Assembly: GCA_032718475.1 (NCBI GenBank)
Contig: JAUCBJ010001599.1
Coordinates: 1-44,078, forward strand
Direction of reading: 5' to 3'
Length of the DNA stretch: 44,078 bases
Source of the DNA: Nemertoderma westbladi
Taxonomy: Eukaryota; Animalia; Xenacoelomorpha
Shown: positions 12,669-44,078 of the stretch, piece after piece
Layout of the letters: each line of letters begins with the position of its first letter
Numbering within the stretch: the first letter of the stretch is position 1
Notes under the pieces: generated by a model
Databases searched by the model: none
What the model saw: only the letters and a program-made list of their open reading frames with translations
What the model was told of the DNA's origin: nothing
Position numbers and translations under genes: made by a program

Positions 12669-14880
12669 TGAATACGCAGCATGAATACGTTGCTGGACAT
12701 ACATTGAGTGAATGAATACGTTGCTGGACATACATTGAGTGAATGAATACGTTGCTGGACATACATTGAGTGAATGAATACGTTGCTGGACGACATACAT
12801 TGAGTGAATGAATACGTTGCTGGACGACATACATTGAGTGAATGAATACGTTGCTGGACATACATTGTGTGAATGAATACATTGCTGGACGACATACATT
12901 GAGTGAATGAATACGTTGCTGGACTTACATTGAGTGAATGAATACGTTGCTGGACGAACATTGAGTGAATGAATACGTTGCTGGACGACATACATTGAGT
13001 GAATGAATACGTTGCTGGACGACATACATTGAGTGAATGAATACGTTGCTGGACATACATTGTGTGAATGAATACATTGCTGGACGACATACATTGAGTG
13101 AATGAATACATTGCTGGACATACATTGAGTGAATGAATACGTTGCTGGACATACATTGAGTGAATGAATACGTTGCTGGACGAACATTGAGTGAATGAAT
13201 ACGTTGCTGGACACACATTGAGTGAATGAATACATTGCTGGACGACATACATTGAGTGAATGAATACGTTGCTGGACATACATTGAGTGAATGAATACGT
13301 TGCTGGACATACATTGAGTGAATGAATACGTTGCTGGACATACATTGAGTGAATGAATACGTTGCTGGACGACATACATTGAGTGAATGAATACGTTGCT
13401 GGACATACATTGTGTGAATGAATACATTGCTGGACGACATACATTGAGTGAATGAATACGTTGCTGGACTTACATTGAGTGAATGAATACATTGCTGGAC
13501 ATACATTGAGTGAATGAATACGTTGCTGGACATACATTGAGTGAATGAATACGTTGCTGGACGAACATTGAGTGAATGAATACGTTGCTGGACACACATT
13601 GAGTGAATGAATACATTGCTCGACGACATACATTGAGTGAATGAATACGTTGCTGGACATACATTGAGTGAATGAATACGTTGCTGGACATACATTGAGT
13701 GAATGAATACGTTGCTGGACATACATTGAGTGAATGAATACGTTGCTGGACATACATTGTGTGAATGAATACATTGCTGGACGACATACATTGAGTGAAT
13801 GAATACGTTGCTGGACTTACATTGAGTGAATGAATACATTGCTGGACGAACATTGAGTGAATGAATACGTTGCTGGACGACATACATTGAGTGAATGAAT
13901 ACGTTGCTGGACATACATTGAGTGAATGAATACGTTGCTGGACACACATTGAGTGAATGAATACATTGCTGGACGACATACATTGAGTGAATGAATACGT
14001 TGCTGGCATAATTTGAGTGAATGAATACGTTGCTGGACATACATTGAGTGAATGAATACGTTGCTGGACATACATTGAGTGAATGAATACGTTGCTGGAC
14101 ACACATTGAGTGAATGAATACATTGCTGGACGACATACATTGAGTGAATGAATACGTTGCTGGACATACATTGAGTGAATGAATACATTGCGGACGACAT
14201 ACATTGAGTGAATGAATACGTTGCTGGACACACATTGAGTGAATGAATACATTGCTGGACATACATTGAGTGAATGAATACGTTGCTGGACATACATTGA
14301 GTGAATGAATACGTTGCTGGACTTACATTGAGTGAATGAATACATTGCTGGACGAACATTGAGTGAATGAATACGTTGCTGGACGACATACATTGAGTGA
14401 ATGAATACGTTGCTGGACATACATTGAGTGAATGAATACGTTGCTGGACGAACATTGAGTGAATGAATACGTTGCTGGACAAACATTGTGTGAATGAATA
14501 CGTTGCTGGTCATACATTGAGTGAATGAATACGTTGCTGGTCATACATTGAGTGAATGAATACGTTGCTGGACTTACATTGAGTGAATGAATACGTTGCT
14601 GGACATTCATTGAGTGAATGAATAAGTTTCTGGACATACATGAGTGAATGAATACGTTGCTGGACGAACATTGAGTGAATGAATACGTTGCTGGACACAC
14701 ATTGAGTGAATGAATACGTTGCTGGACTTACATTGAGTGAATGAATACGTTGCTGGACACACATTGAGTGAATGAATACGTTGCTGGATATACATTGAGT
14801 GAATGAATAAGTTTCTGGACATACATTAGATGAATACGCTGATGACATACATTGAGTGAATAGGTAGTCGGTCATACATT
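12668..14880. repeat. 31/34-bp minisatellite, ~70 copies
   Basis: Unit ATGAATACGTTGCTGGAC(GAC)ATACATTGAGTGA, decaying at the right end. Confidence 0.98.
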
Positions 14881-15580: not shown

Positions 15581-16112
15581 AAAGATGATGGAGACACAGA
15601 GAGGATGTAAAGATGATGGAGACACAGAGAGGATGTAAAGATGATGGAGACACAGAGAGGATGTAAAGATGATGGAGACACAGAGAGGATGTAAAGATGA
15701 TGGAGACACAGAGAGGATGTAAAGATGATGGAGACACAGAGAGGATGTAAAGATGATGGAGACACAGAGAGGATGTAAAGATGATGGAGACACAGAGAGG
15801 ATGTAAAGATGATGGAGACACAGAGAGGATGTAAAGATGATGGAGACACAGAGAGGATGTAAAGATGATGGAGACACAGAGAGGATGTAAAGATGATGGA
15901 GACACAGAGAGGATGTAAAGATGATGGAGACACAGAGAGGATGTAAAGATGATGGAGACACAGAGAGGATGTAAAGATGATGGAGACACAGAGAGGATGT
16001 AAAGATGATGGAGACACAGAGAGGATGTAAAGATGATGGAGACACAGAGAGGATGTAAAGATGATGGAGACACAGAGAGGATGTAAAGATGATGGAGACA
16101 CAGAGAGGATGT
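15581..16112. repeat. 28-bp minisatellite, 19 identical copies
   Basis: Unit AAAGATGATGGAGACACAGAGAGGATGT. Confidence 0.98.
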
Positions 16113-17029
16113 AAAGGATGTTGGTTTTAAGAAAATCACCGCCTTGACCGGCTAACGCCCATAATTTGAAGCTCAATTAGAATTGTTACAGTTTAGAATA
16201 TTAATTGGGTGGAAAATCCAAGGAATTATGTGAACCCATAAAGAAAGTAAGTGGTAAGTTGATAAATTGACCACCTGAGATTAAGTACCATAAATTTATA
16301 TATTTGCGACACCTGATACCAAAGGACTATCGATCAAATTCTCCAACGCATGAACACATAAGATTCATTGAATTATAGCAGCTAGAGTCGCCCAATCTAT
16401 AAAACAGATGGCTAATTAATATTCATAAATGTCCCTTAAGGGAAACCTTATCGGCTTAGTTACAGGGTATGCCTAGATTGACTACAATGTACGATTGCCA
16501 TTCAGTATAAATTTAAGTCAACTAAATCTAACAGTACGCTAGATATACAAGGATGGGCAATCTTTGGAGTGGAACATTTTCATTAACTAAGAATTCCGCT
16601 ATATTTTTGACAGGCTGCTTTTTGACAGGGCATTGACCCCTGGAAGAGCGAGCTATGTACCCCGTATCTGTATAATATATGGAATAAGGGTTGCACGTAA
16701 AACTAATCGCAAGTCGTAATTTCGTAATTAGATACCGCGGAGGAATTAGTAAGTAGGAAATCCCCAGTATCTGGCCCATATCACCGTAATTTGCCTGGGG
16801 ATTACTCCATAATTAGGGGAATTATTTTGAAGACGCGATAACAAGTGAGATATACCACCTTCATAAAATACAGGGAACTTACATTAAAAGGGAAACTGCC
16901 TCATAAAGCTCCTAAGTTCAAGATAGAGACTTTGAATTTATGATCTTAATATAAGATAATAATGGGGGGGGATCAATCACCAATTATAGGCCAAAAATTT
17001 CAAAAAACCTTTTTTGTTAGATTTTTGAC

Positions 17030-19182: not shown

Positions 19183-19356
19183 ATAGTGGACAAACGTTTT
19201 CACAAAATTTGGGAAAATCTCACCTAAAGTTACTTTGTAAAATCCATGTTGCTATGTAAGGAAACATGAAATTGAATGTGTTGTTAATATGGTGAATGGT
19301 CAGATTTTTTGGTTTGTCACAATTTAACCTTTTTATGTCGCAAAGACAAGCCACTA

Positions 19357-20223
19357 CACCATGTCCTGGAATATAGTGTCGTTATTCAGGTACCTGCCCC
19401 CCCCCCCCCCAAATTTTTCTACAAAGCATAATGAAATTTGAAACAGAGATAATTTCACCTCCCTCATCCTTGCTGGGTGAGCCAGAATTTTTATTTTTGC
19501 TTTCAATCTTTAGCTACAAGCGCTTAAAAAAGGTGTCTCCGTGATATTTCTCCAGTTACACTCCAGTTATTCTTCAATCTTATACTGATGGAAAGCTGGC
19601 CATGCAAGGATTCCAAATATGTAACATAATCTGAATTTGGTTGGGAAATAGCTGAGATATGAGCGTTCAAAAGTTGCATGGTTTTGCATCTGCATGAGGC
19701 TATTTTATTCTATTAAATAAAAATACCATATTCTAGAACATTTTCTTTATTTATGAATAGCTAAGTAATAGTATATAATTAAAGAGGCATTGCATTGTTG
19801 CCCAGCTACGTATGGAATAAACAAAATGTTCTAGAACATTGTGTGTTTATTAAATACAAATACATGCAACATTCGAATGCCCATATCTCCGCTATTTCCC
19901 AACCAAATTCAAATGTTTTTACATATTTGGAATCCTTGCATGGGCAGCTTTCTATTGGTACCAACAAATCACTATAAGGTTGAAGAATGATTGCACTGCG
20001 AGACTGTGACCTGTGGAATATTGCCTGAGACACCTTTTACAAACGTTTGTAGCTAAAGAATGAAAGCGAAAATAAAAATTCTGGCTCACCCACGGAGGAG
20101 GAGGGAGGTGAAATTATCTCTATTTCAAATTTGATGCAATCTCATTAAGATTTGTAGAAAAATTTGGGGGGGGGGGGGGGGGGCAGGTACCTGAATAACG
20201 ACACTATATTCCAGGACATGGTG
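19357..20223. mobile_element. Foldback MITE with ~400-bp terminal inverted repeats
   Basis: TA|CACCATGTCCTGGAATATAGTGTCG...CGACACTATATTCCAGGACATGGTG|TA. The arms stay complementary almost to the centre. Related fragments lie at ~9710-9860 and ~43740-43880. Confidence 0.9.
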
Positions 20224-20724
20224 TAATATAAAATACATTATAGAGTAAATGGAGACGCTTTAAGCGCTCAATTTAGACACTAAAGCTAAGGAAAATTAAA
20301 GAGCAGACCAAGGTGGATATAGGTGCATTCTTATTCGGTTAGTTAAAATTAAAAAAACTTTTGTGTGGCGCTCTTAAACCTTTTGTGTGGCGCTCTTAAA
20401 CCTATTGGTTTGGGCAAAATGAATACTAGTTTCCCAAATTAAATATGAAATTATTTAAGATAGTAAATATATAATATGTCTGTCTATGTCGATTATTTGA
20501 ACAACGTAAAGTAATATTTTAAGTTTAAAGATCATTTTATTTTATTGCGGCAATATTTTAAAAAGTTCGTATTTTTTGTAACAAACAAGCTCCGCATCTG
20601 TTACGAAGTTGGCAGTTATAATGCTGCGATAATGGCTTTTGAAATACAACCATAGCCCCATGCTAATTAGTGGGAACGCCATAAGGCATTCCCATGTAGT
20701 AAAACATATAAACAAGAAACCCAC

Positions 20725-22396: not shown

Positions 22397-23060
22397 CCAA
22401 GGACTTCTAGAACATAGCATATATTCATAGTATATATATATTAGTATATACATAGTGTATATATTAGTATATTCATAGTATATATATTAGTATATACATA
22501 GTATATATATTAGTATATACATAGTATATATATTAGTATATTCATAGTATATATATTAGTATATACATAGTATATATAATAGTCTATACATAGTATATAT
22601 ATTAGTATATACAAAGTATATATATTAGTATATTCATAGTATATATATTAGTATATAGTATATATATTAGTATATACATAGTATATATATTAGTATATTC
22701 ATAGTATATATATTAGTATATACATAGTATATATATTAGTATATTCATAGTATATATTAGTATATACATAGTATATATATTAGTATATACATAGTATATA
22801 TATTAGTATATTCATAGTATATATATTAGTATATACATAGTATATATATTAGTATATACATAGTATATATATTAGTATATTCATAGTATATATATATTAG
22901 TATATACATAGTATATATATTAGTATATACATAGTATATATATTAGTATATACATAGTATATATATTAGTATATACATAGTATATATATTAGTATATACA
23001 TAGTATATATATTAGTATATACATAGTATATATATTATAATGTGTTCTAGAAGTCCTTGG
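22397..23060. mobile_element. MITE-like element whose interior is a 23-bp AT-rich minisatellite
   Basis: Perfect 18-bp TIR CCAAGGACTTCTAGAACA; interior (CATAGTATATATATTAGTATATA)n; no clear TSD. A lone related end lies at ~34698. Confidence 0.7.
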
Positions 23061-24032: not shown

Positions 24033-26280
24033 TGATTGTGTGCTACTCTCCAACTAGTGTTGCCCCTGTAGAGGAGGTGGAAAATTTCTACCACAATCTA
24101 CAAGCAGCAACTGATGGAGTGGATTAGCATGCATTCTTAACATTCCTGGGATACTTTAATGCAAGTCTGCATCAATCACCTACATCGCCCTGGGTCTATA
24201 GCGATTGTGTTAACCGAAATTCCGTCCATCTTCAGGATTTTATCTCTGGAAATGGATTGTTTTCGGCTGGAACCAAGTTCAAGAGCTATACTGCCTTCAC
24301 AGAAGCAGTTAAGTTAACAGCTGCAGAAACAGTTCCTGTATACCCTCGACACAGGAAAAGGGCCCCCTGGACTGACAACAAAATTCAGAAGTGCCGAAAT
24401 GACCTCTATAAGGCGCAGAAAGAGTCCCGACTCATACAGACTACAGCGGCCAAGAATGCAGTTAAGGCTGCATCTAGGTCCCTGAACAGGCAGCACTCTG
24501 TTAATTTACAGGAGCTAATAAACCAACAGGTTGATGCCATCAATGATGCTGACGACAGCAGGCAATCATCCCAGGCATGGAAATCGATCAACTTGCTTAC
24601 TGGGTGGAAAAGCCAACCAAACAAACAGCAAGGTTAAAGCTGAATCACGAGCCGATCGCCTCAATGGTTGGAAGGCCCACTTTGAAAAGCTCCTCAATAA
24701 TGACAGGGTACTGCCTGATAACTTTATAGAAGTAAAAGTGTCTGAGTCTGTACTCCCAGATATTCCCATTGGCGATATCTCCTTTGCAGAAGTGAAGGCT
24801 GCTGCAAAGAGCATTAAGACCAATCGTGCCAGTGGAGTAGATGTTGTTCCCCCTGAGGTCTTTAAAATACCTGAGTGTTTAAAGCTCATCTATCCCATCA
24901 TAGTAGACAAAACTAGACATGTACCGAACAACAAGAGTCCCACAAGAAATGAAAACAAATAAATTGGTGCCAGTTCCCAAGAAGGGCAACCTAACACTCT
25001 ATGGTTCTTTTCGGAGAATCTAGATTCCGTAAAGGTCGTGGGACCATGGAGCCCATTTTGGCACTTAGAAGGATAATTGAAGAGTTATCAAAAAAGAAAG
25101 ACAGGCATCTGGCTGTTATCTTTGTTGACTTCTTCAAGGCCTTTGATTCAGTCTCTCGCTCACGTATGTTCAGCATACTTTCATTATATGGGATTCCTGA
25201 TGCAATTATTGCAGCAATTAGATCAGTATACGATGGTTCGACAACATTTGTGACTACTGTTGACGGTGACACAGAACCATTTGAAGTGTTATGGGGCGTC
25301 CTCCAGGGAGACACACTTGCACCATTCTTGTTCATAATTGTGGTTGACTATGTTCTACGCATGTCCTTAGATCATCATAATGATGATGGAGTGATGATAA
25401 CTCCACCTACTGGCTCCAGAAGTCGAGGAAATCCTGCCAAGTAAATAACTGATCTAGACTTTGCTGATGACTTAGGAGTACACTCAGAATCACTAGAGGT
25501 TGCCCAACGGCTCCTCAGCTCATTAGAACATGCTGCTTCTAGTGTTGGTCTTTTTATTAACTCCAGAAAGACCAAAATTTTGACAGTTAACTTTGAAAGT
25601 CCTCAGCAAGTCTCTGATCGGATGAGCATAAGTTCAAAAGATGGTATGCTTGAGCATGTGGATGACTTCTGTTACCTGGGATCATGGATCCGGAAGTCAG
25701 GTGAGGACCTTCGAATACGTAAGGGAAAGGCATGGGCAGCCTTGAATAGGATTTCCAGGATTTGGAAGTCCCCGAGAATTAATCGGAAACTTAAGGTCCG
25801 ATTATTTAGAGCAGCAGTAGTTCCAGTACTCCTCTATGGGAGTCCATGCTGGGCTCTAACTGCTGAGGACACCAAATCTCTGGATGGCACATTCACAAGA
25901 ATGCTACGCCGGGTTCATTGTGTCAAGTACAATGCACACATCTCCAACCAGACACTATATAACATTGGAGGTGTCTCATTGGTTCCCCCAAGCTTGACAC
26001 TAGAACAAAATCGCATCCGCTTTGCAGGACATTGCTTTCGCCGTGAGGACCAGCCAGTGCATAATCTTGTACTTTGGCAGCCTCATGGAGTGAATAGGCA
26101 TGGTGGACAGCCCATGACTTTCTTGAGACGCATCTTAAAGGACACTGGCCTTGAAGATGCGGATGATCTAGCAAATGTCATGGGTGATAGGGAGTTGTGG
26201 CGGCGCAATTTTGTCGACAAGCCGGCACAGCATTCTTAAAAATGCAGCTGCAATGCAGCATGCCGATCATAGTAGTAGTA
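24033..26280 (+). mobile_element. Degenerate RTE-clade non-LTR retrotransposon
   Basis: APE remnant (CYSPTS), VPVPKKGNL, FVDFFKAFDSV, GVLQGDTLAPFLF, DLDFADD, FCYLGS, LLYGS and a short (TAG)n tail. Has an in-frame stop at 25442, frameshifts and internal deletions. Confidence 0.93.
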
Positions 26281-26871
26281 TCAAATTAAAAATAAAAACA
26301 TATATAAAAAGTAAATCAACAAAAAATAATAATAAATAAATGAAAAAAAAAATAATAATAATAAAAAAAATATTAAATATAAAAAAAAGATAATATGCAC
26401 GCATATAACTAAATATAAAAAAAATAAGAAAAAATAAATCAAAAATTTGTATTCTTAAATTGTTACTTTTCGCTCGAATACACCCCAAAATAAGAAGAAA
26501 AAGGATTAGCCTTTTCCCTAGGGAAAAAAGCCATTTTGATTTTTCTTTTTTTCCCTGCGAAAAAAGTAACATAATACATTTTTGGTGGAATTTCATAAAT
26601 TGTATTACATGTGTTGAAAGAGCGTGGAAGTAGATAAGGTTTGCAAGTAATTTGAACAAAGTCCATTCACACACTCAAAAGTTATTACAACTTTAGTGTC
26701 TACAAGGCATATTCCAAAATGGAACTCAATATTCAACTAAATTAATACCATTATTAAATTAATACCAATAATAAATAGGAGGTCTTAATCTCGTTTATTT
26801 GACAGAAAATAATTTACCTTATTAGTAGAAAATTATTAACTCCTTCCATAGAGGTGTTAAACAAATAAACT

Positions 26872-27146
26872 ACACGTTGTGGGGCCTTCGCGCAGCACGA
26901 GAGCCTATATAAGAACGTGTACTAATCTCTAATAGATATTTCTTCGATTAGACCGTCTCTCCCAAAATATAAATGTGTGTTGCTTTCAGTTTGCGTTAAA
27001 CTAGTTGTAAAATGGGGTCCATTTCAGTTTGCCCTTATACGCTTTAACTGTCATTTGTAAAGATACTAACTAGAGCTATTTAAGTTAAATATGACATTTT
27101 TAGTTTTACAGTACTCTTAACCTTCATTAGCTTCGTTGCGCTCGTC
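26872..27146 (+). mobile_element. ~280-bp dispersed repeat, copy 2
   Basis: Colinear with 7413-7691. Confidence 0.75.
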
Positions 27147-27359
27147 CTGCTTTGACTCAAAATATTTTTCCTAAACGGAGACTGGAGACCTTTATAACTA
27201 TGCAAAGTCTCGAAACTGTGAGAGTAACTGCTGATTTATGGCAGATGGAACTGAAAAACTCGTTGCGTTCGTTCTGTAAAACCTGGTGCCCAAATATATA
27301 CAGAAAATCTAATAACATTACATTATCAGTAGTGAAACCGAACATAAAATTATAATTGG

Positions 27360-27940
27360 ATCTATAAATCTACCTTGGTATAAGGTGGTCAAGCATTTAG
27401 GACATATTTTGGACTTTCAGTGCAGTACGACAAAGATACAATAATTAAATTTTATTACTATATTCTTATATTTGATTAATTCGCCCAAGGCGACAATTAC
27501 TAAAACTGTTAAATAACAAGCGATAAATCGCGCAAAGGTCCGCATGAACTCGTTACATGAGATTCTAAGTGCCACGCTCTGCCAACTGAGCCACTGGGGC
27601 CGTATCAATCATTAACAACACCACAACAACGGAGTGAATGCTAGAAGTCTCGCTACGCGGAACTAAAAAGCTAGACCAGCTGTTAAATAAAACGTATAAA
27701 AGCAAAGAGTTTAAAAAAAGGTTAATCCCCAAGAGCATTAAAGAGTTAAAAATTGTAGCAGCTCTTGAATAGTTTAAGACAATAAATCTACTTTGCAGAT
27801 CCATTTACTACATGTAAGGTACAACGTATTTATGTGACATCATTTTACGGCAGTAATTTATGGAATCTATTTTCGTCAGTTACAAATAAAGTATTTACAA
27901 CTTGGAATACAAACATTGGCCTCACATTTAACTTACCGTT
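27360..27940 (+). mobile_element. Highly degraded non-LTR retrotransposon fragments (RTEX-like C-terminus), interrupted by a SINE
   Basis: Short translations LPWYKVVKHLGHIL (~27370) and TSFYGSNLWNLF..WNTNI..TFNLP (~27836). Confidence 0.5.
27470..27603 (-). mobile_element. tRNA-derived SINE, internally deleted relative of 2918-3110
   Basis: Minus strand reads GGCCCCAGTGGCTCAGTTGGCAGAGCG...GAGTTCA joined to GCGGACCTTTGCGCGATTTATCGCTTGTT. Confidence 0.65.
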
Positions 27941-30900
27941 TAATTGGGATTCCGGTCATGTAAGTTTAATTGTAATGGAAGCATGTAAAATCATTTGTCT
28001 ATCTATATTGTCAGCCATAAATTTATAAATTATATGGAAGAAACATGATGGACTGTCTTAACCTTTCCTGGGGACGATATTTTTACACAAAATCCTCAGT
28101 GATGCAAACAGGCAACAAGGCGTCCTTTAATACAGACCATGCGGCCGCGATTTAGGCAAAATTTGCGTAGGCTGATACTTTTACAATAGTATATATAGGC
28201 AATTCAATGCTTATTATGGGTAATCAGACAATGTTTGTGTATCTTATTAGTTGAAATATACTTCAGTAAACTATATTTTGTAATTTATTAAATTTGTACT
28301 GATAATTAAACATTTCAAATGGTTCGCTGACATATAAATCGGATGACGTTTGGGTGGATCTGGAATCTGGCAAGATGGTACTGCAGAGGTGGCGTTATCT
28401 GTTATATGTTTACTTTATATTATTATTAACGGTGTGGTAGGTACTTTATATTATCTATCAGGAACTTTATGTAATTATTTTGTTATTGCCTACCCAATAT
28501 TCCTCACCACAGCGTGAAAAACATATCAATGAAACTGTTTCTTCACTAATTAAATAGATTAAGTAACAATCCTGAGAATTAATCGTAAATCATAAAATTA
28601 AACGTGTGACTCCTCCCCTGCAGATAATTGTCTCAGTTTTAAAGAGTCGCATTGGCAGATAAGTTAAGGGCACTGCCAACCTCATTCAACGCACGGGCTG
28701 GAACAATGAAACATGGAACGAGCTTAAAAACAAAGGATGGCCCTCCGAACAAACAATGGATCATAATGACCAAGAGAAAAGTCGCCAGTTTATCTGGACG
28801 ATCCACTGGAGTGGCCATTACAGGCCAAGCATTGACCCAACGTGGTACTGTAGGGATGGTTTTACATAACTTCGAGAAATTAAACACAATTTTGTCGATT
28901 TTGAGTACCACTCAAAAAAAGCTTTACTCAATACTTGTAGCGAATATGGAATCAACAGATAAATAAACCCATTCTTCGGAGCATTAAGAATTGAAACTTG
29001 CAGAAACTTATATTAGTCTGCTGGTAATTGTTAAGGTGGCGATGGCGAACTATCTTTTCAATTTCTGATCAGGCGAATGCGAACGGTATGGAAAGGAAAC
29101 TCTTTTCCAACCAAAAATACGATGTGAAGTTAATCCCAGCACCCAGCCACCCCGTAGTGGCGTTGTTCTTTCGAAACTCTACCGTCCACTGAGCGACTAC
29201 GTAGACCTTCTCTCTATTGGCTCATCGCAAATACAGCAATAATACCGGTAGTCATCGTGAGTATGAGTAACAATGTCCATTGTTATATACCAAATTGACA
29301 ATGGTGGCTGTTATGACGAGGCGGATGGAGAGGGGATACAGGACATGGGTGTAACGAAAACACTGACGGAGGATGGGGACGGACGGAAGCACCTCCGCGA
29401 ACGCGAACGACTTCACCGTGGTCTCCGGTCAATACTTTCGACAAACGCCAATGTTCTTCGTTACACAGGCAATAATGTTAGGTAGCGCCCGCAGAAAGGC
29501 ACGCATTTGATTCGAAGACGAAAACCTTTCCAAGGTTCTGTTCCTCGAGAGTGGCGTCGCAATTCCATCAGCAGTAGCCGCCACAGCATTATTTATGAGG
29601 CATTATACTGTTCTAATTCCATTATAAATCAGTCTACGTAAAACTAATACTGTAGGCCTAAAGAAAACTTGAGTTTAATAAAGCTAATTAACTAATTAAA
29701 GTAATATATTCTGTCAATCAATTAGTCTACCTACAACAACTAGCATAGCTGCATAGCACAATAGCATTGTACTGTTAATAAACAGGGGCATCAAGTTGGA
29801 TTATTGATCACAATAAAATTTACTAAGGTTCGGTATGACCTTTTATTCCATATTTGGAAACAGCTGATAGCTGATTAATCTCAAAAATAAAACTGTAACC
29901 TGTCTAATGATTTTAGTTTATTGTTTCGGTTAGAATGGCGTGCCAATATAAACTACCTCTTTGCCTTAATTTATAAATTTAACTTTAGTGACGAGATATT
30001 AATTCGCCGAGATGGGACCCCTTGGACTTCACCCATCTCATGACCTGGGGGAACCCCCAGCCCCCCCCCCCCCCCCCCCCCCAGTCTCAAACTACGTCAT
30101 ACAAACTCTGAACAACCCAGGAAACAAGAAAGTAATACGAAACCAATAAATTTAATTGTAATTATGGGATTTTATGTTTACAATTCCATGGAAATTGCGA
30201 TCCAAGAAAATCTTGTAATATTGCAGAATGGAACTGCGTCGTTGTCTGCATATAAAAGGGGAAATAAAGGCAGCATATATCTAAAGAGGAAATGATTGCG
30301 GCGAACAATCGAACATGCAAACCCATAACCACCTAGGCGCGACAACAAGGTAGAAAACCCTCGCAATATCAATCGGCATTAAACATCTCAGTAGCAAAAC
30401 GCAATGCAATAAAGCGTTCAAATCACAACCAACAAAATTATGTTGGAATTCCTAAGCAAATATGTCGGGTGATTAATTCAATTCAAATTGACATAAATAT
30501 CATGCGACACAAGATAACTGTCAGTTCAGATGCGCCTCACAACACTGCCAAAGGCGTTTAACAACGTAAAGTAAGTGGTATAACATTACCGAGATCATTA
30601 GATGATTATTATCTCATCTGATAAGAAACATCATTTAACACCAGTTCTTTGGAGAATCGCGATTAATTAATGTACAATGACGCATTGGTAGCGCATGTAC
30701 CGGTAATAACTTATTGAAAGGCATTTTAAGCTGTTCCTCCGAATGTGATAATAAAGTTATTTGGTTGAATTCGCCGAATGTAAATGGAGGTTATTTGGAA
30801 TGGATGCCGAGAAACAAATCATTACAGGGGCATCACAAGCTTGGAATAAAACCATGCGATGCATTACGGATGATCAATAAAACAGAGAGACATCATTCCG

Positions 30901-33256: not shown

Positions 33257-34018
33257 CAGGCCACTTTAATTTGTAGAATCCAGAAAATAAATAAATTAAG
33301 CTAAATTCTAGTCCTCCAAAATCTTAATTTGTAGGTTAATTTCTAGCCCCTATTTTCTGCTTAAAAACGCTTAATAAACTCGTAATTAGCATCGAATGAG
33401 TGTATTATAAGTTCCAACAAACAGACATACAGAAACACTCAAGCCCAATTGAATTTTGAGTTTTTTTTTATATTTTAGTATTAAAAGTTCTTCAAACTGC
33501 TGCGAATCAAAGCACTACTCTAGGGAAAAAATTACTCGAACTGCTTCGATTTTCGTTTTTAATAACCCGAACTCCAGTCTCCCTTTCTGACTCCTTATTG
33601 TTGTCCGTTTTACTTCCACCAGCGCTTCTAAAGTGCCGATGTTATAACAACTGTTAATAATAATTATTTATTTATAAACAAACCACACCAAACACTAATC
33701 CGTACTTATATTTTATTTCATAGTTGTGAACCTTGTTTGTATATATACTATTCATTTTATTGAGTTTACTAATAATTAATGAATAATATAAATTGTCGTC
33801 TTACCCCGTTGGGGTGTCTCTTAATAAAAAAAGTGCCGATGTTATCAGATGTCAAGTTCAGCTACACCCTGTTTGTCATTTTTGGTGTAATTGTTTAGTA
33901 AAAGCGCCTCTAGTCAAGAAAAAACATTATTTTTTTACCCTTATTTTCTAGTACTCCAAAATCTTAATTTCTAGCTAATTTCTAGATTCTTGAAAATTCT
34001 ACAAAATAAAGTGGCCTG
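33257..34018. mobile_element. Non-autonomous hAT-type element (MITE)
   Basis: TIRs CAGGCCACTTTAATTTGTAGAAT / ATTCTACAAAATAAAGTGGCCTG and a perfect 8-bp TSD ACAATACA. Confidence 0.88.
33646..33829 (+). mobile_element. Short retroposed 3' end nested in the hAT MITE
   Basis: Ends in AATAAAAAAA and is flanked by a 16-bp direct repeat AAAGTGCCGATGTTAT (33630-33645, 33830-33845). Confidence 0.75.
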
Positions 34019-34879
34019 ACAATACATGTACTTTGAACTCTGAAGACCGGTTTACGTGGGGCAACATTTTGAGCAACTTGGTGAGCAACTCATGTTACCA
34101 ATGAAATTGCTCCTTATAAACACGAAGCTGATGTAAAAAAAATTGCAATGTTTAAACTTCGAACAAGTTAAGTTTCTCAAAATAAAGTTGCTGGTTGCTT
34201 GCCAAGTTTGTCAAAAACGTGTAACCCGGACATCATCTAGCCAAATGATAAAGGAATCGCTTTACAATACAGGATGCATACTAGACATAAACACCTGACC
34301 ACCTGACAAGGAAATGATAAGATAGCTATAACAAACAAGAGATTTATACGAAAGAGCTACAATGTGAAAGCGGATCACCACTAGTCCTTGAAGTATAGCA
34401 GGCCAGGGAAATATAGATAGAAATGGGACAATTATTAACCAATGACAAACAGCATGTAGTAGGCCCAGTAGCCATTTAGAAACAGAGGGAAGAAGGTTAC
34501 TTCGGTTTACACCAAAGAAATTCCATTGGCCAGTAATCATTTAATGGAATTCCGAAGTTGGGAGCTTTCTAATACTTCACATCATACCTGAGCTGTGCTG
34601 CAGTGTGCCTGAGTAGCACTAGCACACGCTATTTTTTTTTATTGAATGCAGTTTTAATTTTAATTAATTTATTAAAATACAATAATTGCACATAATCAAG
34701 GACTTCTAGAATACAGTATATTGGGCGTTGCACTTAGCTCCCACTGTAGTTTTTGAAGGCTGATTTTTTCTTTGGTATTTTAATACTACTTTAATCTGAT
34801 TTTAATTCTGATGTTTTTCTTAATTTTTTTTTTCTTGCATAATATGCCATGTTGATTTTCAAATTTAAGTAATTAGTTA

Positions 34880-35500
34880 TTATTCCAAAATTGTAACATT
34901 ACTCAACGCCGTTAGTATTAACAGCGAGTTGTTATTTAGCACTTTACAACCTTAGAGGACATTACAGCATTGTATTGGCCTGTACAATTAGTATTATATA
35001 TAGTGGGTGTTGTAATGTCCCATGTTTATGTAGTAACCAATGACGGCGAGCTGTAAAGTTACGGCGTCAATGGTTACCACGTAAACAATAGTGGAAATTT
35101 GCCTGACAGCCAGATAGGCCTACTGCATTACCTAACGGTAGGCGGGGTATAGCTATTAATAACCAGTAGGGCCTAGCTATATTATTATAACATGGCTCCA
35201 AACGCCACCATAAATACAAGCTAACTTATTTATAACATAATTTATGTCATTTTTAAATTTATTTATACAGCAACTAATTTAATTTGTGCAGTTTCTATCA
35301 CTTATAATATATATACAATCATTTCGTAATGTTACAATTTTGGAATAAAACAACATACTTGTTGCAAAGAGTCTTTACAGTGTTCTGATCCTCGTGGCTT
35401 TAATTTCGCTCACTCACTAACGTTCGTTGGTGTAACAAAGCCACTCGGATCATCACACTATAAAGTGCTACTTAACACACAAGTATGTAAATAGTTATTA
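34880..35500 (+). mobile_element. ~620-bp dispersed double-hairpin repeat, copy 1
   Basis: Colinear with the reverse complement of 39789-40393. Internal inverted repeat TTATTCCAAAATTGTAACATTAC plus a terminal ~135-bp hairpin. Confidence 0.85.
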
Positions 35501-37044
35501 TGTAATTTAAAAAAATTAGCTACCATCAAATAGACTTACTTCTGCCACAATTGAAAAATCACGAATTACTTAATATTTGGAGACCCACATAGCAAGCATA
35601 TGCATGAAGAAAAAATTGAGATAGAGCATCAGAAAATACTTTTATTCTTAAATCGTTACTTTTTTGCTCAAATATACCTCAAAATCTAGAGAAAATGGAG
35701 TATTTTTAAAATAAAACAAAATATTTTTGGTGGAATTTCTTAAGGGGAGTAGTACAGGCATTTTTTCCATACAAACTACTATTAAGCCTCGGTACACTTT
35801 AAGAACACATCAGATTACTTTATAGGCCAACTGTTCCTGAATTCCAACCGGAATTTAACTGGCTTTCAGGTAATCCAATTGGTTTTTTGAATTTCTCAAG
35901 ACATTCAAATTTTCTATAACTCAAATGGCAGTTTTCACTTTTAATGAAATCTTATTTGTCTGTATGTCTGTCTGTCGGTCTTTCTGACTATCCGACAATC
36001 TGTCCGTCATATATAAGAAAAGGGCATACAATCTAGTTAAAAGTTTAGCTAGATGGGTTTTCCTGGTCGCAGAATTAATTTCGAGTGTCAGTTTTAACAT
36101 TTGATGACTTCCAAATTGTCTGTTTGGCAGTCAATCTGCCGGTTATATTTTGACGCACAGACTGACATGACAGGCATACAGACAGAAACGACGAGCCCAA
36201 ATTTGAATATTGAGATCAGAAATGAAGTAACCGACCACGAAAACCCATATATGTAATTTTTTTAGACAGATAGTTTGCTTTTTATTGACGGACAGACATA
36301 CTAACGGACAAACCGACAGTCAATCAGACAGACAGCCATATCTCGTAAAGTAAGACAGATCTTACTAATTTTGGAATCTTGATAAAAATTTGCTCTAGTT
36401 GAAATAGAAAAAAAATTTGATTTGCACGAAAAAATTTGCACGAAATTATAGCAAAATAAAAGCTCATACTGAAAAGTTATTGCAACTATAGTGTCTGTAA
36501 GGCGTGCTCCAAAACGGAACTCAATATCCAATATAGTTTGTGTAGTTAAGCGGCTCTCTAGTTACGTAATAAATATTCGAGAACACTAACTTATTTAACT
36601 TTGAGTAAGGCAGTAACAGGAGTTGAAAATTACAATAATTGGATTTGGAATCGCTGTAACTATGGAAGCAATATAGTAAAATACAGAAATACTGCAGTTC
36701 AAATTATCTTGTAACACTTGAGTGAAATATTTAATTCCGCCACTCGCCGCTAGAGGGACACAAAAAAATTTACAATTTCAATTTTTGTTGCTCTTAGGCC
36801 TTCCCCACGTTTGCTGAACACAACATAACAGTGATATTGACCTACAACACGAAGTTTGAGCTGTTTAAAAAAAAACTCTCCTGAGGGGGTACCCCCCCCC
36901 CCCCCCCCCGCGCCCTTAAAGAATGACATGAATGAGCAACAAAAAAGTACAAATTTATGAATAAAATTACGTACCGGGTATTACATAGGTAATCATTGTA
37001 GCAGGTACCGTCAACCGTAGATGATAATAGGCAGATAAGCATAC

Positions 37045-37090
37045 CTGATTTATAAACTGGGACCGGATGTTCGGAGGAAATTGCTGCCAT
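37045..37090 (-). CDS. RAPGEF1: RAPGEF1/C3G-like, candidate first coding exon (MAAISSEHPVPVYKS)
   Basis: ATG at 37090 and donor CAG|GTATGC in phase 1, matching the phase-1 acceptor at 31669. No homology support; based on splice signal and phase only. Confidence 0.6.
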
Positions 37091-38680
37091 CTAGCTAACC
37101 GTCAGTATCTGTCAGTCTGTATTGAATATCAATCACTGGCGCGCTGACGCCAGAATGCCAGGCCAAGCTGCAACAAGGCCAGCTTGCAACTCTCTTCCAG
37201 TCTTCTATCGAGAGTCTATCAAGCTAGACAGCTAGACTACCTCCATCCATTCCACATTGCTCCAGACTGCCAGACCTGTCTGCCTGTACTCTGCAGTAGG
37301 CTACACTTCTGACTGTCTGGTATGCCTACACCTACGGTACCATACTGCCATACAGTCCCCTTGCCACTTCAGCACTTACAGCCTTACGCTTACAGCCCTT
37401 TTCAGCAGTTCAGGTTTTCTACAATTTGCTGACCCTGACCTGACCTGGACTCCTGAAGTATTCCCTTCCGGCTTCTGCCTGTCTGCCACTACCTGACTGT
37501 GACTCCCTTGATGCCTTGGCCTTTTGGCAGCTTTGTTGGTGCTAAGCCAAGCTACTGAGCTAGGTGCTAACCAGAAACCAGCTAACGTTTTTGCTGCTTT
37601 GTTCAGTTGATAGTTTTGTAGCGGAACCGAGTCGGAGCGGTAGATTTGAGATCCAGCTATAGGCTAGGGCCTATCACAACTGCATCAATCATGACTACAT
37701 TGTGATATGCAATCTGACTACTGTTCGCGCCTACCGTACCTGCCTACACATACCTGCCCTGCATACAACTGCAAACTGTACAGATGTACCTCAGTAGCTT
37801 ACCACTGTTTGACTTGCGGTCTTGCGCTGTGACTGTGTGCAGGTGAGTTGCGACGTGCTGGCTGGCGTGCAGTTTGCATTGCGGACACAACTGTCAACTG
37901 TTATACTGTTGACTGGTTGAATGTTGTAAATGTTATACTGTCAACTGGCATGATCTGACTGCCAGAATGCTGACATGACTGCATGACAGCATGACACTAT
38001 ACAGATATAACACAGATCATGCCTGCATGCACCATGCTGCCATGCAGATACAGACTGACATAGCTGCAGAGAGTGCTGGAGTGCTGAGTACCGGTGGTAT
38101 CTGGGTATTGGAGTACTGGCTGACTGGAGTAAGGCTAGTACTGTAGTATGTAGTACAGTAAGGCTGTAACAGTGTAAGGTCAGAAGGTAAAAAGTCTGTC
38201 GCAGTCGTTGAGTCGTTCCGTTGGGTAGCGCGTAGCGGTAGTCCGGTAGGCCTAGTGTTGATTGATAGCCTACCCTGCTACCCCTAAATGCTAATGCATA
38301 ATACACTCAACAGCTCAATGCAGTACTGCTGTACCTGTGTACCGTACTGCTGTAGTTTAGTGACATTTTCTTTGACTGGTTGGCCTACTGTGTACTGCTG
38401 TACTGCCGTACCCAGTTATCAGACAGTGAAGTCCGCCAGACTGTCAATGTTATCATTATCTGTGGTCAACGACCTCTCGAACAAATTACTTATTCAATAA
38501 AAATTAGGCATATTCTGGAAGTAACTACTTTCCTTCTAAATACTTCCCCACCAAGACGTAGTACATCAGTATACCGTTCACCGTTAAGCGTAACTAATAG
38601 CCCGACCGAAACGTGAAAACCTGGTATACTGTATAGTGTATATAGTGTATACTGTAGTATATACAGTAGTGCAGTACGCA
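37091..38680 (-). promoter_or_regulatory. Probable RAPGEF1 5'UTR/promoter, saturated with short duplication footprints
   Basis: Lies immediately upstream of the candidate ATG, is GC-richer than its flanks, and has at least 16 NNNNN-CWG-NNNNN motifs. Promoter identity is positional inference. Confidence 0.5.
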
Positions 38681-38938
38681 GTACGCAAAAAGCCAAGTGG
38701 GGTGATGTTTCAGCCTTCTTGTAGGGTTAATGTTAAATTAATATTGAAAAATTAGGGCCTAGAAGTAAGTTTTACTGTAAACTGTGTTCCTAAATTTAGT
38801 TTATTGATTTGGTTAGAAAAGCCTACTTTAAAAGGTACATTATACTGTATGGTGAATATCGAAATTAAGTATTCGCGAAATTAAGTTAATATGTTAAAAT
38901 AGGCTGAAACGACACCCCAATTGGTAATATGCGTACAG
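38679..38938. mobile_element. Old Tc1/pogo-like MITE
   Basis: Imperfect ~35-bp TIRs CAGTACGCAAAAGCCAAGTGGGGTG..TTTCAGCCT / AGGCTGAAAC..CACCCCAATTGG..TGCGTACAG. Confidence 0.55.
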
Positions 38939-39788
38939 TACTACCAACGTCAATCAGTCATAATATGATTTCTCTACATTACAATTGTGGGGGGACCGAA
39001 CTAAAAATCATTCGTCAGAGAAGAGAGTGTGTAATCCCTGGAAAGCCGAATAAAACGTTAATGTTTTACTTTATTTTTTTTTCATAATGATTCAATGCTA
39101 CTATAGATAGAGTGGGCACTAATTACAACTTTCTTTCTAAGGAAAGTTGTATTGTGTCACCTAGCATTCCAAATTTGAAAAACTTTTAACTACCTTGGAA
39201 CATGTTTGCTCAACCTCACAACTACGTACCAACCTGAATCCAACTACAGTAACTACAAACTATTACTAAAACACGTTCGTGTGGCCTTCGCGCAGCACGA
39301 GGCTCAGATATGAGATATAGATTAATATTGAGCGATTCTACTGTATCACAAACTCGGTATCTAAGAAATTTAACCAAACACCAATAAATCAAAGAGAGAT
39401 AAAAGCCCCCCCCCCCCCCCCCCTCTTAACCTCCCTAGCGACCCAATTTGTAAGAAATATAAAACTTACCTTATGCTGATAGTGTTGATACTGAGATATT
39501 AATTTATCATGTCAACACCTCAACGAAATTATTTACCTAATTATTCTAAAGAATCATGATTAAGTACTCGGCCAATCATTTTGTAAGCTAAACACAATAA
39601 CCAAGCTGGCTTATTAGTCTGGCTCATTACAATGTTGCCTTTGAGTAGTGATGAGGTGGTTGGACTGGAGGCTAGCTGGGAAGACTAGCCTTCACAGCTA
39701 GGCTAGCAAGCATACCAAGTAATGAGGGAGCTATGGAAGTATAGCTGGGGACAGGGCATTTTAATAAGTTAATTACGTTTAGATCAAT

Positions 39789-40393
39789 TAATAACTATTT
39801 ACATACTTGTGCGTAAAGTAGCACTTTACAGTGTGATGATCCGAGTGGCTTTGTTACACTAACGAACGTTAGTGAGTGAGTGAGTGAAAATAAGGCCACG
39901 AGGATCAGAACACTCTAAAAGTACTTTGCAACAAGTATGTATGTAGTTTTATTCCAAATTTTTAACATTACGAAATGATTGTACATATATTATAAGTGAT
40001 AGAAACTGTACAAATTATATTAGTTGTTGTATAATTAAATGGAAAAATGACATAAATTATGTTATAAATAAGTTAGCTTATATTTATGGTGGCGTTTGGA
40101 GCCATGTTAACAACATAGCTACTGGTTATTAATAGCTATACCCCGCCTACCGGTAGGTAATTCAGTAGGCCTATCTGGCTGTCAGGCAAATTTCCACCTA
40201 TTGTTTACGTGGTAATCAATGACGGCGTTAAGTAATGTCCACTAAGGGGACATTACTTAACTACTAACACCAAATACAATACTAAATGTACAGGCCAATA
40301 CAATGCTGTATTGTCTTCTAAAGTTGTAAAGTGCTAAATAACAACTCGCTGTTAATACTAACGGCGTTGAGTAATGTTACAATTTTGGAATAA
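39789..40393 (-). mobile_element. ~605-bp dispersed double-hairpin repeat, copy 2 (inverted)
   Basis: Reverse complement of 34880-35500 with scattered substitutions and one indel region. Confidence 0.85.
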
Positions 40394-40489
40394 AAACACA
40401 TTTCTTAAAGCAAATCTCTTGAACTAATTAAAAACTATAATGGAATGGGGTATGGGGAATATAGCTGTATAATTGTTACACCGATTGAG

Positions 40490-40771
40490 TTAGTGGTACC
40501 TGTATGACAAGCTCGCTTACTTTCGTGGCTCGCCCCACATTCTCACCGTAAGTTCAACAGTCTTGATGTGGGGCGAGCCACGAAGTGAGTGAGCCTTAGC
40601 GTAGTGGTACCATTAATCAACCTGTGGGGCGAGCCACGAAGTGAGTGAGCCTTAGCGTAGTGGTACCATTAATCAACCTGTCGTTCTGTCGTTCTGTGGG
40701 GCGAGCCACGAAGTGAGTGAGCCTTAGCGTAGTGGTACCATTAATCAACCTGTCGTTCTGTCGTTCTGTCG
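40490..40771. repeat. Hairpin whose right arm (~57 bp) is triplicated
   Basis: GCTCGCTTACTTTCGTGGCTCGCCCCAC pairs with GTGGGGCGAGCCACGAAGTGAGTGAGC. The latter plus flank occurs three times, with (TCGTTCTG)n after the second and third copies. Confidence 0.85.
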
Positions 40772-41051
40772 CGTTTTTTTTCAGTATTTTATTTTAAACG
40801 TTAATAACTCGGCCAATCCTTGATGAAATCTATCCAAACTTGGTACACATGTTGTTTGGCAAAAGTTTGAAAATTTTCCAAGTAGAATTTGCGTGGGGCC
40901 TTCGTGCAGCATCAGTGTAACTGTTATTGCAGTTATAATAAATTTATTTATCCCAAATTTAAAATGCGTTAAATTATTATTACTGTAGGATAAATCAGCT
41001 GGTTTTCTGACAAATTTTGCAATTCTGCATGCACCATGTGTACCGGTACTG

Positions 41052-41773
41052 TTATTATTATTATTAGTCAACACTCCTTTATTACATCATATTATAACTA
41101 TTTGTTGCACGTGAAGTAAGATAAAACATAATTAGTGGAGGGAGAAAAACCACCCAGGCGTATCAGCGCTTACGGGGGTTAATAAAAAACAAAATTTAAA
41201 ATCACTAAACATTAAAATTTACATCAGCTTAAAAAAAAAAATTAAAAAGAAATACGAATAAAATGAACTGTACATACCGTAGAACCCAGAAACGTTTATT
41301 ACGAGCGACCGATTAGTGGTCGATTAAATTTGCAAATTGGTAGGAAATCGTGGTTCTTGAGCTTGGTCGCAAAACTGACAAGTGTTCTGGAATCTACTAT
41401 ATCTTCTGGCAAATCATTCCAGACTGGCACAACACGGCTGGTAAATGAGTTTTTAGATATAATTAATCTACATCTAGGTACATTTAACTTGTGAGAGTGG
41501 CCACGCAGACCCGGACGGTTAGTATAGCTAAATAGCGCACCAAAATCTAAATCAACTAAATTTCTCTCTATACTGAAAAGTAACTTTAGATCAAAAATAT
41601 ATCGTCGGACTTCCAGCGGTTGTAAATTAAGGTGTTGTATTCTATGTATGTACGGTTTGTAACTAATATTGCAACGGCTATACAATCTACGTGTAAAATA
41701 TCGCTGGACACTCTCCACAAGATCAATACTGCCTAATGAAAAAGGCGACCATACTGGTGTACAGTATTCAAAC
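41052..41773 (-). mobile_element. 5'-truncated CR1/L2-group LINE 3' end
   Basis: EYCTPVWSP..VESVQRYFTRRL..LRGHSHKL..FTSRVVPVWNDLP, followed by a 3'UTR, AATAAA and a (TAA)n tail. Confidence 0.9.
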
Positions 41774-42069
41774 TGTCAGGCTGTACTCAATCCCTGAATC
41801 GAGAATCCTGCTAGGGTGCATTTATAGTCAGATGCCGTCCGATCCGATCCGATCCGATGCATTTCGGCAATTATTGTAGCTACAACTGTCAGACTGCAGA
41901 CTGTACAAGCCTAGCTGCTTAGGCTAGGCCTACTTCTGTTTTGCCTAACACTGAACGCAGTCTGGGTATGACTATTGCTGTATTGGCCTATTGCATTAGG
42001 CTATTGTATATCAGTATATGGCATGGCAGTACTGCAGTATGCAGGTATGGCAGTACTGCAGTACACAGT

Positions 42070-42946
42070 ATGGGATCATTCGTAGCTCTGTAGCTGACTG
42101 TGGTGTTCAGAAGGAAATCGGACGCGCGTTGGACTGTTGGATGTCCTGGAATGGAGTCTACCGACCAACTTGCAGGGTGAGGCTGTCCCTCTGCAGCTCT
42201 GATCCTGGGCGGTGGAGACTGTGCTGATGGCGGCGGAAGCGGGAAGACCGGGGCATTCTGTATCCCGATACTACAGCTGGTCCATGAAACTCTACGGTAC
42301 AAACTCCGAGATGGAAAACTCGATGGGAAATCGGGAGGAAGAACTAGGCCTACGAAATTTCAGTTGAACTCATTCGATAGAGCGATAGAGGTGACCAGTT
42401 GGCCATCTCCCCGGACGGTTGCTGTGTCATGCGCGTGGCCAGAGGAGTTGGCACGGTACCCGGACGACTAAAGGAATAGTCGGATCCGGTCGTTTCGTTA
42501 CTATTCAGCTATTACGAGGCGACGGTAAAGGACGAGGTGCGAGGGCCCATGCCGGGTTGGTTGGAGCACCGGAAGCGCGACACTCGATAGATCGGGACTG
42601 ATAAAAATAGTTTTGGCTTCGGAGGAAACGGTAAGAAGTGTTTCGGGCGGCATTTTGACGACTATGGACAACCATATGGACTAGGCGACGTGATCGGTTA
42701 TCGGATCGATCTGGATGTGGGCGCAATTGGGTACCGGTACAGTAAAAACGGAAGTGATCTCGGGAAAGCTTTCGACAGTTCGAGATTCCCGCTAATTTAC
42801 GCAAACTCCCGTTATTCCTGTATTCCCGCAGTCTGTGGTCTGTCGGTATCTTTAAAGAATGCTGAAATTATGTTTATTTTCGCCGAATTTATCCGTTTAT
42901 CTGCGCATCTTCTTTCCGGGTACACCATTGTATCCCGGGCGCCGTT
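42070..42946 (+). pseudogene. DDX1: DDX1 (DEAD-box helicase with SPRY insert) 5' fragment, multiply frameshifted
   Basis: Repaired translation reads [54 protein letters not shown]...DGLLCHAR..WHGTRTTKG..YYE..DEGPCRVGWST..GTDKNSFGFGGNGKK..SKNGSDLGKAFEIP..LKNAE. It carries more than 10 indels, including a deletion in motif I. Confidence 0.93.
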
Positions 42947-43120
42947 TTGTACCTACAATGTACCAAGTTGTGTAACTTTTGTACCCATTGTACCAAGTTG
43001 TGTACCTTTTGTACTTATTATGTACCAAGTTGTGTACCTTTTACACCTACTATGTACCAAGTTGCGTACATTTTGTACCTATTATGTAACAGTTGTGTAT
43101 GGTCTTGTACCTATTTATGT
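42945..43120. repeat. Degenerate ~31-bp minisatellite directly after the DDX1 fragment
   Basis: Unit approximately TTTTGTACCTATTATGTACCAAGTTGTGTACC. Confidence 0.85.
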
Positions 43121-44078
43121 TTCCTAAAGTAAAGATGTGTAATCTGATTATTATTATGATTGCTACATAACATGGTATAGAGACTATCTTATCTTATAAC
43201 CGTTATCAACAGTGTTGTAGTCATAATTTGCAACGTTTCATTGAAATAATCACTTGAAATATTCGAATACATTCTACCCATAATAATTAATACTAATTAT
43301 TGTAAAACTATTTTTCTATGCGGAAATCCAGACTGAAAGTCTCTCTCTTGATATCTGTTGTTCCTTTGCGTCAATATAATTAGAGTGTATTTAACAAATT
43401 TATTGTATCCGTTGAAATGTATTTGTTAAACAATAATTTAGTTGTCATGATTTTTAAGTAAGATTAGGTTAATTAAATAAAGCCTTTATAAAATTATTAT
43501 TATTATCCTGGGGGAAACTTTACAGCTTTATCGAAACTCTATAGCTCCATGGTAAGTATAGCTCCACGAAACTCTATGGGGGGGGGGGGGGGGGGGGTAG
43601 TATACTCCAGGTATTAAACTAAACTGATCCTTTTCTTATATATGATGGACAGATTGTCGGATAGTCAGAAAGACCAAATTTAATATACTATCTAGTTAAG
43701 TTTTTGAATTTATTTTTTGAAATATACCAGAACATGACTAGCTATTTTATTTTTAAAAAATAATGTTCTAGAACGAATATTTTTTGAAATATTTAAAAAA
43801 TTATCAAACACTAATGTTTAGTAACTTTATTTTTTCATATCAATAAAAAGCTTGTCTTGCAAGGATTCCAAATACAACTAATTACCCAACTAATTAGTAT
43901 AAACAATTTCGTGGGAGGGTTTACGACGTACCTCCAGTTCCCCCTCCCTCCTCCAAGCCAATTACTAGCTTTACCTGTATCATGGACGTAGGGAGCATTT
44001 TTGAAAAGCGGACCATTATCATTTAAATAATTTTTTTTATATTTATTATAACTAACCGACCACAGGACTATGTTAATT

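Follow-up and report, generated by a model that had tools for sequence, protein, structure and literature searches.

Small CAG- or CTG-spaced insertions in a DDX1 pseudogene of Nemertoderma westbladi: likely excision footprints of a predicted cut-and-paste transposon

The stretch of Nemertoderma westbladi DNA analysed here (contig JAUCBJ010001599.1 of assembly GCA_032718475.1; 44,078 nucleotides, hereafter the window) contains a piece of DDX1 coding sequence with the start of the DEAD domain, the SPRY insertion and a disrupted reading frame, the mark of a pseudogene (Table 1). DDX1 proteins came up as its matches in a HMMER search and in a profile search. The piece matches human DDX1 (PDB chain 8tbx_A, E = 5.5e-07) and the SPRY domain (E = 8.5e-08). 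When its in-frame parts are joined with X, the highest identity among 120 DDX1 proteins is 56% (E = 9e-80). The closest of these 120 are animal sequences, none of them above 56% identity. Short frames of the window gave no match in word-based protein searches, and a 24-base motif of the fragment gave 0 matches in a metagenome scan. The absence of introns is uninformative about a retro origin, because the putative intact gene described below is likewise collinear and intronless between two anchors in two DNA runs.

We aligned the raw sequence to a profile of 30 DDX1 proteins (the best 30 of 90 tried, ranked on the insert-free sequence) with a frameshift-aware method that held no model of footprints. 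The alignment covers residues 1–264 and places insertions of +11 at 42082, +8 at 42129, +8 at 42191, +8 at 42376, +13 at 42497, +7 at 42534, +2 at 42589, +6 at 42729, +8 at 42771 and +22 at 42818. The DDX1 piece holds about a dozen small insertions, mostly of the form 5-CWG-5, in which two copies of a 5-bp sequence enclose CAG or CTG, or trimmed versions of it; we refer to these as scars. The first-pass annotation had named six full and four trimmed motifs, and all ten are present where it placed them, 10 of 10 lying within insertions of the profile alignment. Its list of sites was incomplete: an 8-bp insertion at 42375 had been missed, which is either a simple duplication of 8 bp or a scar whose spacer has changed at one base, and 7–8 further indels lack the scar form (+1 at 42220 with −7 near 42238, −1 at 42420, +2 at 42589, net +7 at 42826–42845, +2 at 42888, +1 at 42914 and 3 extra bases near 42082). 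Because of these further indels, removal of the ten motifs leaves the frame broken. The protein that the annotation had described as repaired is DDX1-like, with 0 stops in 245 positions of the joined pieces, but the removal does not yield it as a single frame. In the stack near the end of the fragment, TCCCG-CAG-TCTG is likely an older, decayed scar, read by eye.

Table 1. Positions of the DDX1 fragment, its insertions and the neighbouring scar-bearing stretches in the window.
Feature	Position	Strand	Remarks
DDX1 coding sequence, 5' part	42070..42946	+	About residues 1–264, DEAD domain start plus SPRY; intronless, dead, 3'-truncated
Scar TAGCT-CTG-TAGCT (+8)	42083..42095		Profile alignment gives +11 here; polarity from protein profile only
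Scar TTGGA-CTG-TTGGA (+8)	42129..42141		In some copies only; single TTGGA in putative intact gene
Scar CTCTG-CAG-CTCTG (+8)	42189..42201		Profile alignment; 4+2+1+1 letters missing in the X1 contig of the putative intact gene
8-bp insertion CGATA-GAG-CGATA	42375..42390		Overlooked by the first-pass annotation; needed for the 29-base sum
TCGTT-TCGTT (+5) and CTATT-CAG-CTATT (+8)	42490..42513		Profile alignment gives +13; part of the 29-base sum
Trimmed scar CGAGG-TG-CGAGG (+7)	42533..42544		Profile alignment; part of the 29-base sum
Trimmed scar GGTAC-C-GGTAC (+6, in frame)	42730..42740		Profile alignment only
Scar TTCGA-CAG-TTCGA (+8)	42771..42783		Profile alignment only
Stack, net +22: TATTC-CTG-TATTC, GTCTG-TG-GTCTG and a third, decayed scar	42813..42845		Profile alignment
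32-bp minisatellite	42945..43120		DDX1 homology ends here
Second patch	36900..38450		25 exact scars (0.07 expected) and 18 with one mismatch (about 1.4 expected); greater average age
Upstream stretch	41780..42069		5 exact scars plus nested ones

The polarity of these events can be read from other DNA. The stretch is present in 6 of the 9 listed runs, with no RNA run among the listed carriers, and contigs of four runs were compared over 41750–43000. A 2347-bp contig of run X1 and a 1660-bp contig of run X4 share one set of differences from the window and look like the intact DDX1 gene, a putative assignment made from aligned pieces with one loose end. At the 42129 site this gene has TTGGA only once, and it lacks 8 letters at 42190–42201, in agreement with the earlier prediction that a functional DDX1 would be free of the inserts. 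Its anchors at 42304 and 42592 lie 259 bases apart, compared with 288 in the window, and the profile alignment predicts +8−1+13+7+2 = 29 bases between them, exactly the shortfall. The copies of the fragment are not identical to one another either: X1, X4 and X5 lack 8 bases at 42128 in their commonest contigs, an X6 contig has them, and 8 bases at 42006 in the upstream stretch (TATAT-CAG-TATAT at 42007) are missing from the contigs of 4 of the 4 runs compared. The empty sites carry no CAG or CTG beside the 5-mer. The inserts are gains, and the target duplication is single at the empty site; for 42083, 42730, 42771, 42813 and 42831 the polarity comes from the protein profile only. The profile alignment, the 29-base sum and the empty sites at 42128 and 42006 bear out the first-pass reading of the motifs as insertions.

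The same comparisons bear on whether the inserts might be 8-bp slippage duplications at pre-existing CAG or CTG, or an artefact of assembly. At 42375, CGATAGAG repeats 8 bp perfectly in tandem, and some scars are stacked, as slippage could produce. However, the empty sites without CAG or CTG beside the 5-mer refute slippage for 42129 and 42189, and since most of the other scars are matched without gaps by contigs of three independent DNA runs, an assembly artefact is excluded. We therefore regard an origin by slippage or misassembly as extremely improbable.

How far the motifs exceed chance depends on their class. Six exact 5-CWG-5 motifs occur in 42070–42946 versus 0.01 expected from 200 dinucleotide shuffles, and two motifs with a CA or TG spacer versus 0.09 expected from such shuffles. 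The single C/G-spacer motif (0.40 expected) and the single repeat with no spacer (0.79 expected) do not reach significance by themselves. In addition, GGAAG-CG-GGAAG at 42235 belongs to the native coding sequence (GSGK) and resembles the trimmed class by chance. For both reasons, trimmed forms need outside support. Across the whole window, CWG separates 5-bp repeats in 43 cases, 4-bp repeats in 12 (none of them in the DDX1 piece or in 36900–38450) and repeats of 6–9 bp in 0. LTR-type TGCA spacers accounted for 0 of 4 repeat matches with 4-nt spacers in the two patches.

The scars are crowded into two patches. The first 36.6 kb contain 3 exact motifs (0.8 expected), 36900–38450 contains 25, 41780–42070 contains 5 and the DDX1 piece contains 6. 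The density is thus 0.08 per kb in the first 36.6 kb versus 16 per kb in 36900–38450, and it is 12.5 per kb in the DDX1 piece when all 11 inserts are counted; the first 36.6 kb are some 150–200 times poorer than the patches. Scars of the second patch have a mean divergence of about 6%, and no open frame was seen by eye in 36900–38500 after they were stripped out. This patch lies between two arms in inverted orientation (34864–35511 and 39778–40409), each about 650 bp long and 85% similar to the other, with no clear target duplication. A 47-bp inverted pair (35977–36023 and 43629–43675; 98% complementary, 7.6 kb apart) flanks both patches, and no target duplication was seen there. Just upstream of the stretch at 41780, an insert of about 720 bp (41054–41771) with a (TAT)n start lies between two copies of ACTGT and is possibly a reversed, truncated retroelement; loose ends at 41772 in X4 and X5 resemble its empty site. 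Elsewhere in the window are satellite arrays at 1526–2553, 11492–14861, 15581–16124 and 22420–23037 with units of 42, 47, 31, 28 and 23 bp, all scar-free, and an 871-bp fold-back element with long inverted arms at 19355–20225.

The composition of the scars points to their source. Among the 43 exact scars the spacer is CAG in 17 and CTG in 26, whatever the flank, and the duplication is exactly 5 bp, takes 39 distinct forms and has 39% GC. Its sequence follows a loose preference, (T/C)(A/C)N(T/G)(A/G), with 62, 62, –, 62 and 62 of 86 strand-symmetric counts at the five positions. The indels therefore have the non-random spectrum of size and sequence that the first-pass annotation had expected of footprints, and some scars differ between copies. 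A duplication of fixed length that is single at the empty site is the pattern of an excision footprint. Thus, the motifs, in which a 5-base duplication is accompanied by the insertion of all or part of CAG or CTG, are likely the excision footprints of a predicted cut-and-paste transposon with CAG...CTG ends.

We infer that the spacers derive from the ends of this transposon and, in the same way, its cutting chemistry and the cause of the patches. Insertion of the transposon would occur with a stagger of 5 bp. When the transposon leaves, the non-transferred strand would be cut 3 nt inside each end, which would leave CAG and CTG 3' tails, and end-joining across the central mismatch would give either a CAG or a CTG spacer. 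Trimming before joining would yield CA, TG, C or no spacer at all. Two-base CA/TG spacers occur 2, 5 and 2 times in three patches versus 0.09, 0.37 and 0.07 expected, and AG/CT spacers 0 times in all three; a left flank that keeps a prefix of CAG and a right flank that keeps a suffix of CTG produce CA or TG, and not AG or CT. This series fits the earlier proposal that 3-nt overhangs were joined end to end.

An explanation without a transposon is that host repair filled a 5-nt staggered break and joined it with a fixed three-base terminal addition. The window has yielded no CAG-ended element of the kind sought, and the restriction of scars to patches is also compatible with a local repair process. 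Nonetheless, repair pathways are not known to us to add an invariant CAG or CTG, and both the prefix and suffix series and the two outcomes of the mismatch match what two element ends predict, which makes host repair unlikely. A transposon remains our preferred source.

Known footprints of this form are those of Sleeping Beauty, which leaves TACAGTA or TACTGTA and, in some cells, shorter forms of 1 or 2 bp (PMC6943129). The scars resemble the Sleeping Beauty and Tc1/mariner footprint in having CAG or CTG between duplications, with shorter forms after trimming, and in the constancy of a spacer that is independent of the flank. They differ in the duplication, which is 5 bp long, only loosely specific and not TA (39 different 5-mers in 43 scars). 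Moreover, Sleeping Beauty footprints come from an assay, whereas the record here is a natural germline one and the element is only predicted. TA-CWG-TA motifs are themselves in excess in the window (10 versus 1.05 in 38450–41780 and 18 versus 6.2 in 1–36600), and the window may contain ordinary Tc1/mariner-type scars as well as those of the 5-bp type.

Some elements with 5-bp duplications work through hairpins, Transib among them, and a hairpin-forming hAT5 or Transib element could in principle have left spacers that are P nucleotides copied from the flank. hAT5 transposons make 5-bp duplications (PMC12730594), and hAT ends have G as third base (PMC1131882), which is compatible with CAG. For Transib, the same source describes 5-bp duplications, CANTG-like targets in some families and CACAATG-like ends. 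Transib thus shares with the scars the duplication length and an overlapping target preference, but its ends begin with CAC rather than CAG and its targets are GC-rich, in contrast to duplications with 39% GC. Also in favour of a hairpin-forming element is a 762-bp hAT-like MITE at 33257–34018, whose CAGGCC... inverted ends match at 19 of 20 positions and which has an exact duplication of 8 bp, ACAATACA. Since 8-bp-plus-CWG scars are absent from the window, this MITE is probably not the source of the scars. The studied hAT elements form hairpins on the flank and leave flank-dependent scars, those of Ac/Ds being one-base exchanges or deletions with P nucleotides (PMC2921059). Here the spacer does not mirror the flank: it is constant, only 9 of 43 scars have a duplication with G as its last base, and a P-nucleotide fit on either side is found for 23 of 43, which disfavours P nucleotides from flank hairpins. 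The literature searched held no excision data for hAT5, and neither the available part of PMC6004678 nor a further search of the hAT5 literature described hAT5 ends. Taken with the evidence on both sides, hairpin-derived spacers are very unlikely; should the element be hAT5-like but cut by an altered chemistry, it would belong to the preferred explanation, an element that leaves CAG and CTG tails.

We looked for this element. CAG-ended inverted repeats with a 5-bp duplication occur in the 44-kb window at chance level only (best, 13 of 20 matches), and the 18 of 75 contig loose ends listed include no recognisable CAG-ended element. One candidate, at 25272–28327, was rejected: it has no CTG end and starts inside a reverse-transcriptase remnant. 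A LINE-like element has left a broken reverse-transcriptase frame (RVT_1, DUF6451) at 24995–26236. No transposase, whether of the DD(34–41)E/D kind that marks Tc1/mariner or of the hAT kind, was found in the 15 ORF pieces of the window that were scanned, which contained only RT, DUF6451, SPRY and DEAD. In the accessible portion of the literature searched (Repbase reports, supplements and most subscription journals lying outside it), we found no description of 5-CWG-5 scars and no superfamily that unites CAG ends, a loose 5-bp duplication and a flank-independent spacer. A transposon with such ends may already be catalogued.

The history of the fragment determines how its scars can be dated. Non-autonomous repeats such as Pack-type TIR elements and Helitrons capture gene fragments. 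Like such captures, the fragment is a truncated host coding sequence of raised depth beside a repeat of far higher depth and a minisatellite. In X4, contigs of the fragment have a depth of 855–1174 compared with 19.9 for the putative intact gene, and the 5' neighbour (41750–41917) exceeds 11,000; X5 holds several diverged versions at 10–35 beside one at about 300–390. These values suggest tens of copies, with the limit that depth is not copy number and that the ratio of fragment to intact gene in X1 is only about 2. The DDX1 fragment is probably carried in an amplified non-autonomous repeat, and scars common to all copies would then likely have been gained once, before amplification.

Of the fragment's listed differences from the intact gene (18 of the 35 in two long aligned pieces), 14 fall at third positions, and over 42624–42683 third positions differ at 11 of 20 compared with 4 of 40 first and second positions (Fisher p = 0.0003). 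This excess indicates that the source gene was under selection long after it split from the intact copy, and it argues against direct descent from the organism's present intact DDX1. The source is either a lost or unseen paralog or a transfer from a relative. Its synonymous divergence from the putative intact copy (X1 and X4 contigs) is near saturation.

The first-pass annotation had suggested that footprints accumulated fast relative to point mutations and that divergence from the intact gene would give the rate. That clock is misleading and is ruled out, since the differences are mostly synonymous, but comparisons among copies do suggest a high rate. Over 41936–43000, the window copy and the commonest copy differ by 2 scars, 2 substitutions and two 2-bp indels. 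In four other contigs the length changes are +16 alongside 5 substitutions, +8/−5 with 5, +6/−1 with 10 and +6/−3 with 8; these gains are known by size only, letters being listed for 12 of 54 indel rows. If these gains are scars, the pooled ratio of scars to substitutions is about 8 to 30. The copy-to-copy data therefore suggest one scar per 1–7 substitutions, from small counts. The decay of the scars gives a second estimate: 10 of the 12 scars in the DDX1 piece are intact (the twelfth read by eye), which gives a mean age of 1.5% per base (0.2–5.4%), and with about 1.5 scars per 100 bases and steady formation this corresponds roughly to 0.5 scars per substitution, and at least 0.14. Finally, the differences at first and second positions set an upper limit of about 10% on decay, from which we roughly estimate at least 0.15 scars per substitution. 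The three rough estimates agree, and the local rate of scar formation appears to approach that of ordinary point mutations.

In the preferred model, cycles of insertion and excision would be concentrated in a few patches, perhaps of accessible germline chromatin, and within them would add about one scar per 1–7 substitutions. We tentatively raise the further possibility, about which we are rather doubtful, that an undescribed transposon lineage combines a loose 5-bp duplication with 3-nt cutting of the Sleeping Beauty type, and that it is a leading local mutational process, rebuilding these patches with scars nearly as frequent as point mutations.

In summary, the kind of scar is known and its geometry is new to the literature searched; the scars are well polarised and their local rate is high. 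Excision footprints are familiar from assays, but the rate at which they form naturally in the germline is difficult to obtain, since the empty state does not usually survive. In the present case that state is supplied both by a conserved gene and by sister copies, so that scar formation can be compared with substitution. The scar also predicts the transposon's ends (CAG...CTG), its duplication length, its target preference and its cutting chemistry. The local concentration of 150–200-fold would allow the landing sites of the element to be mapped from such scars.
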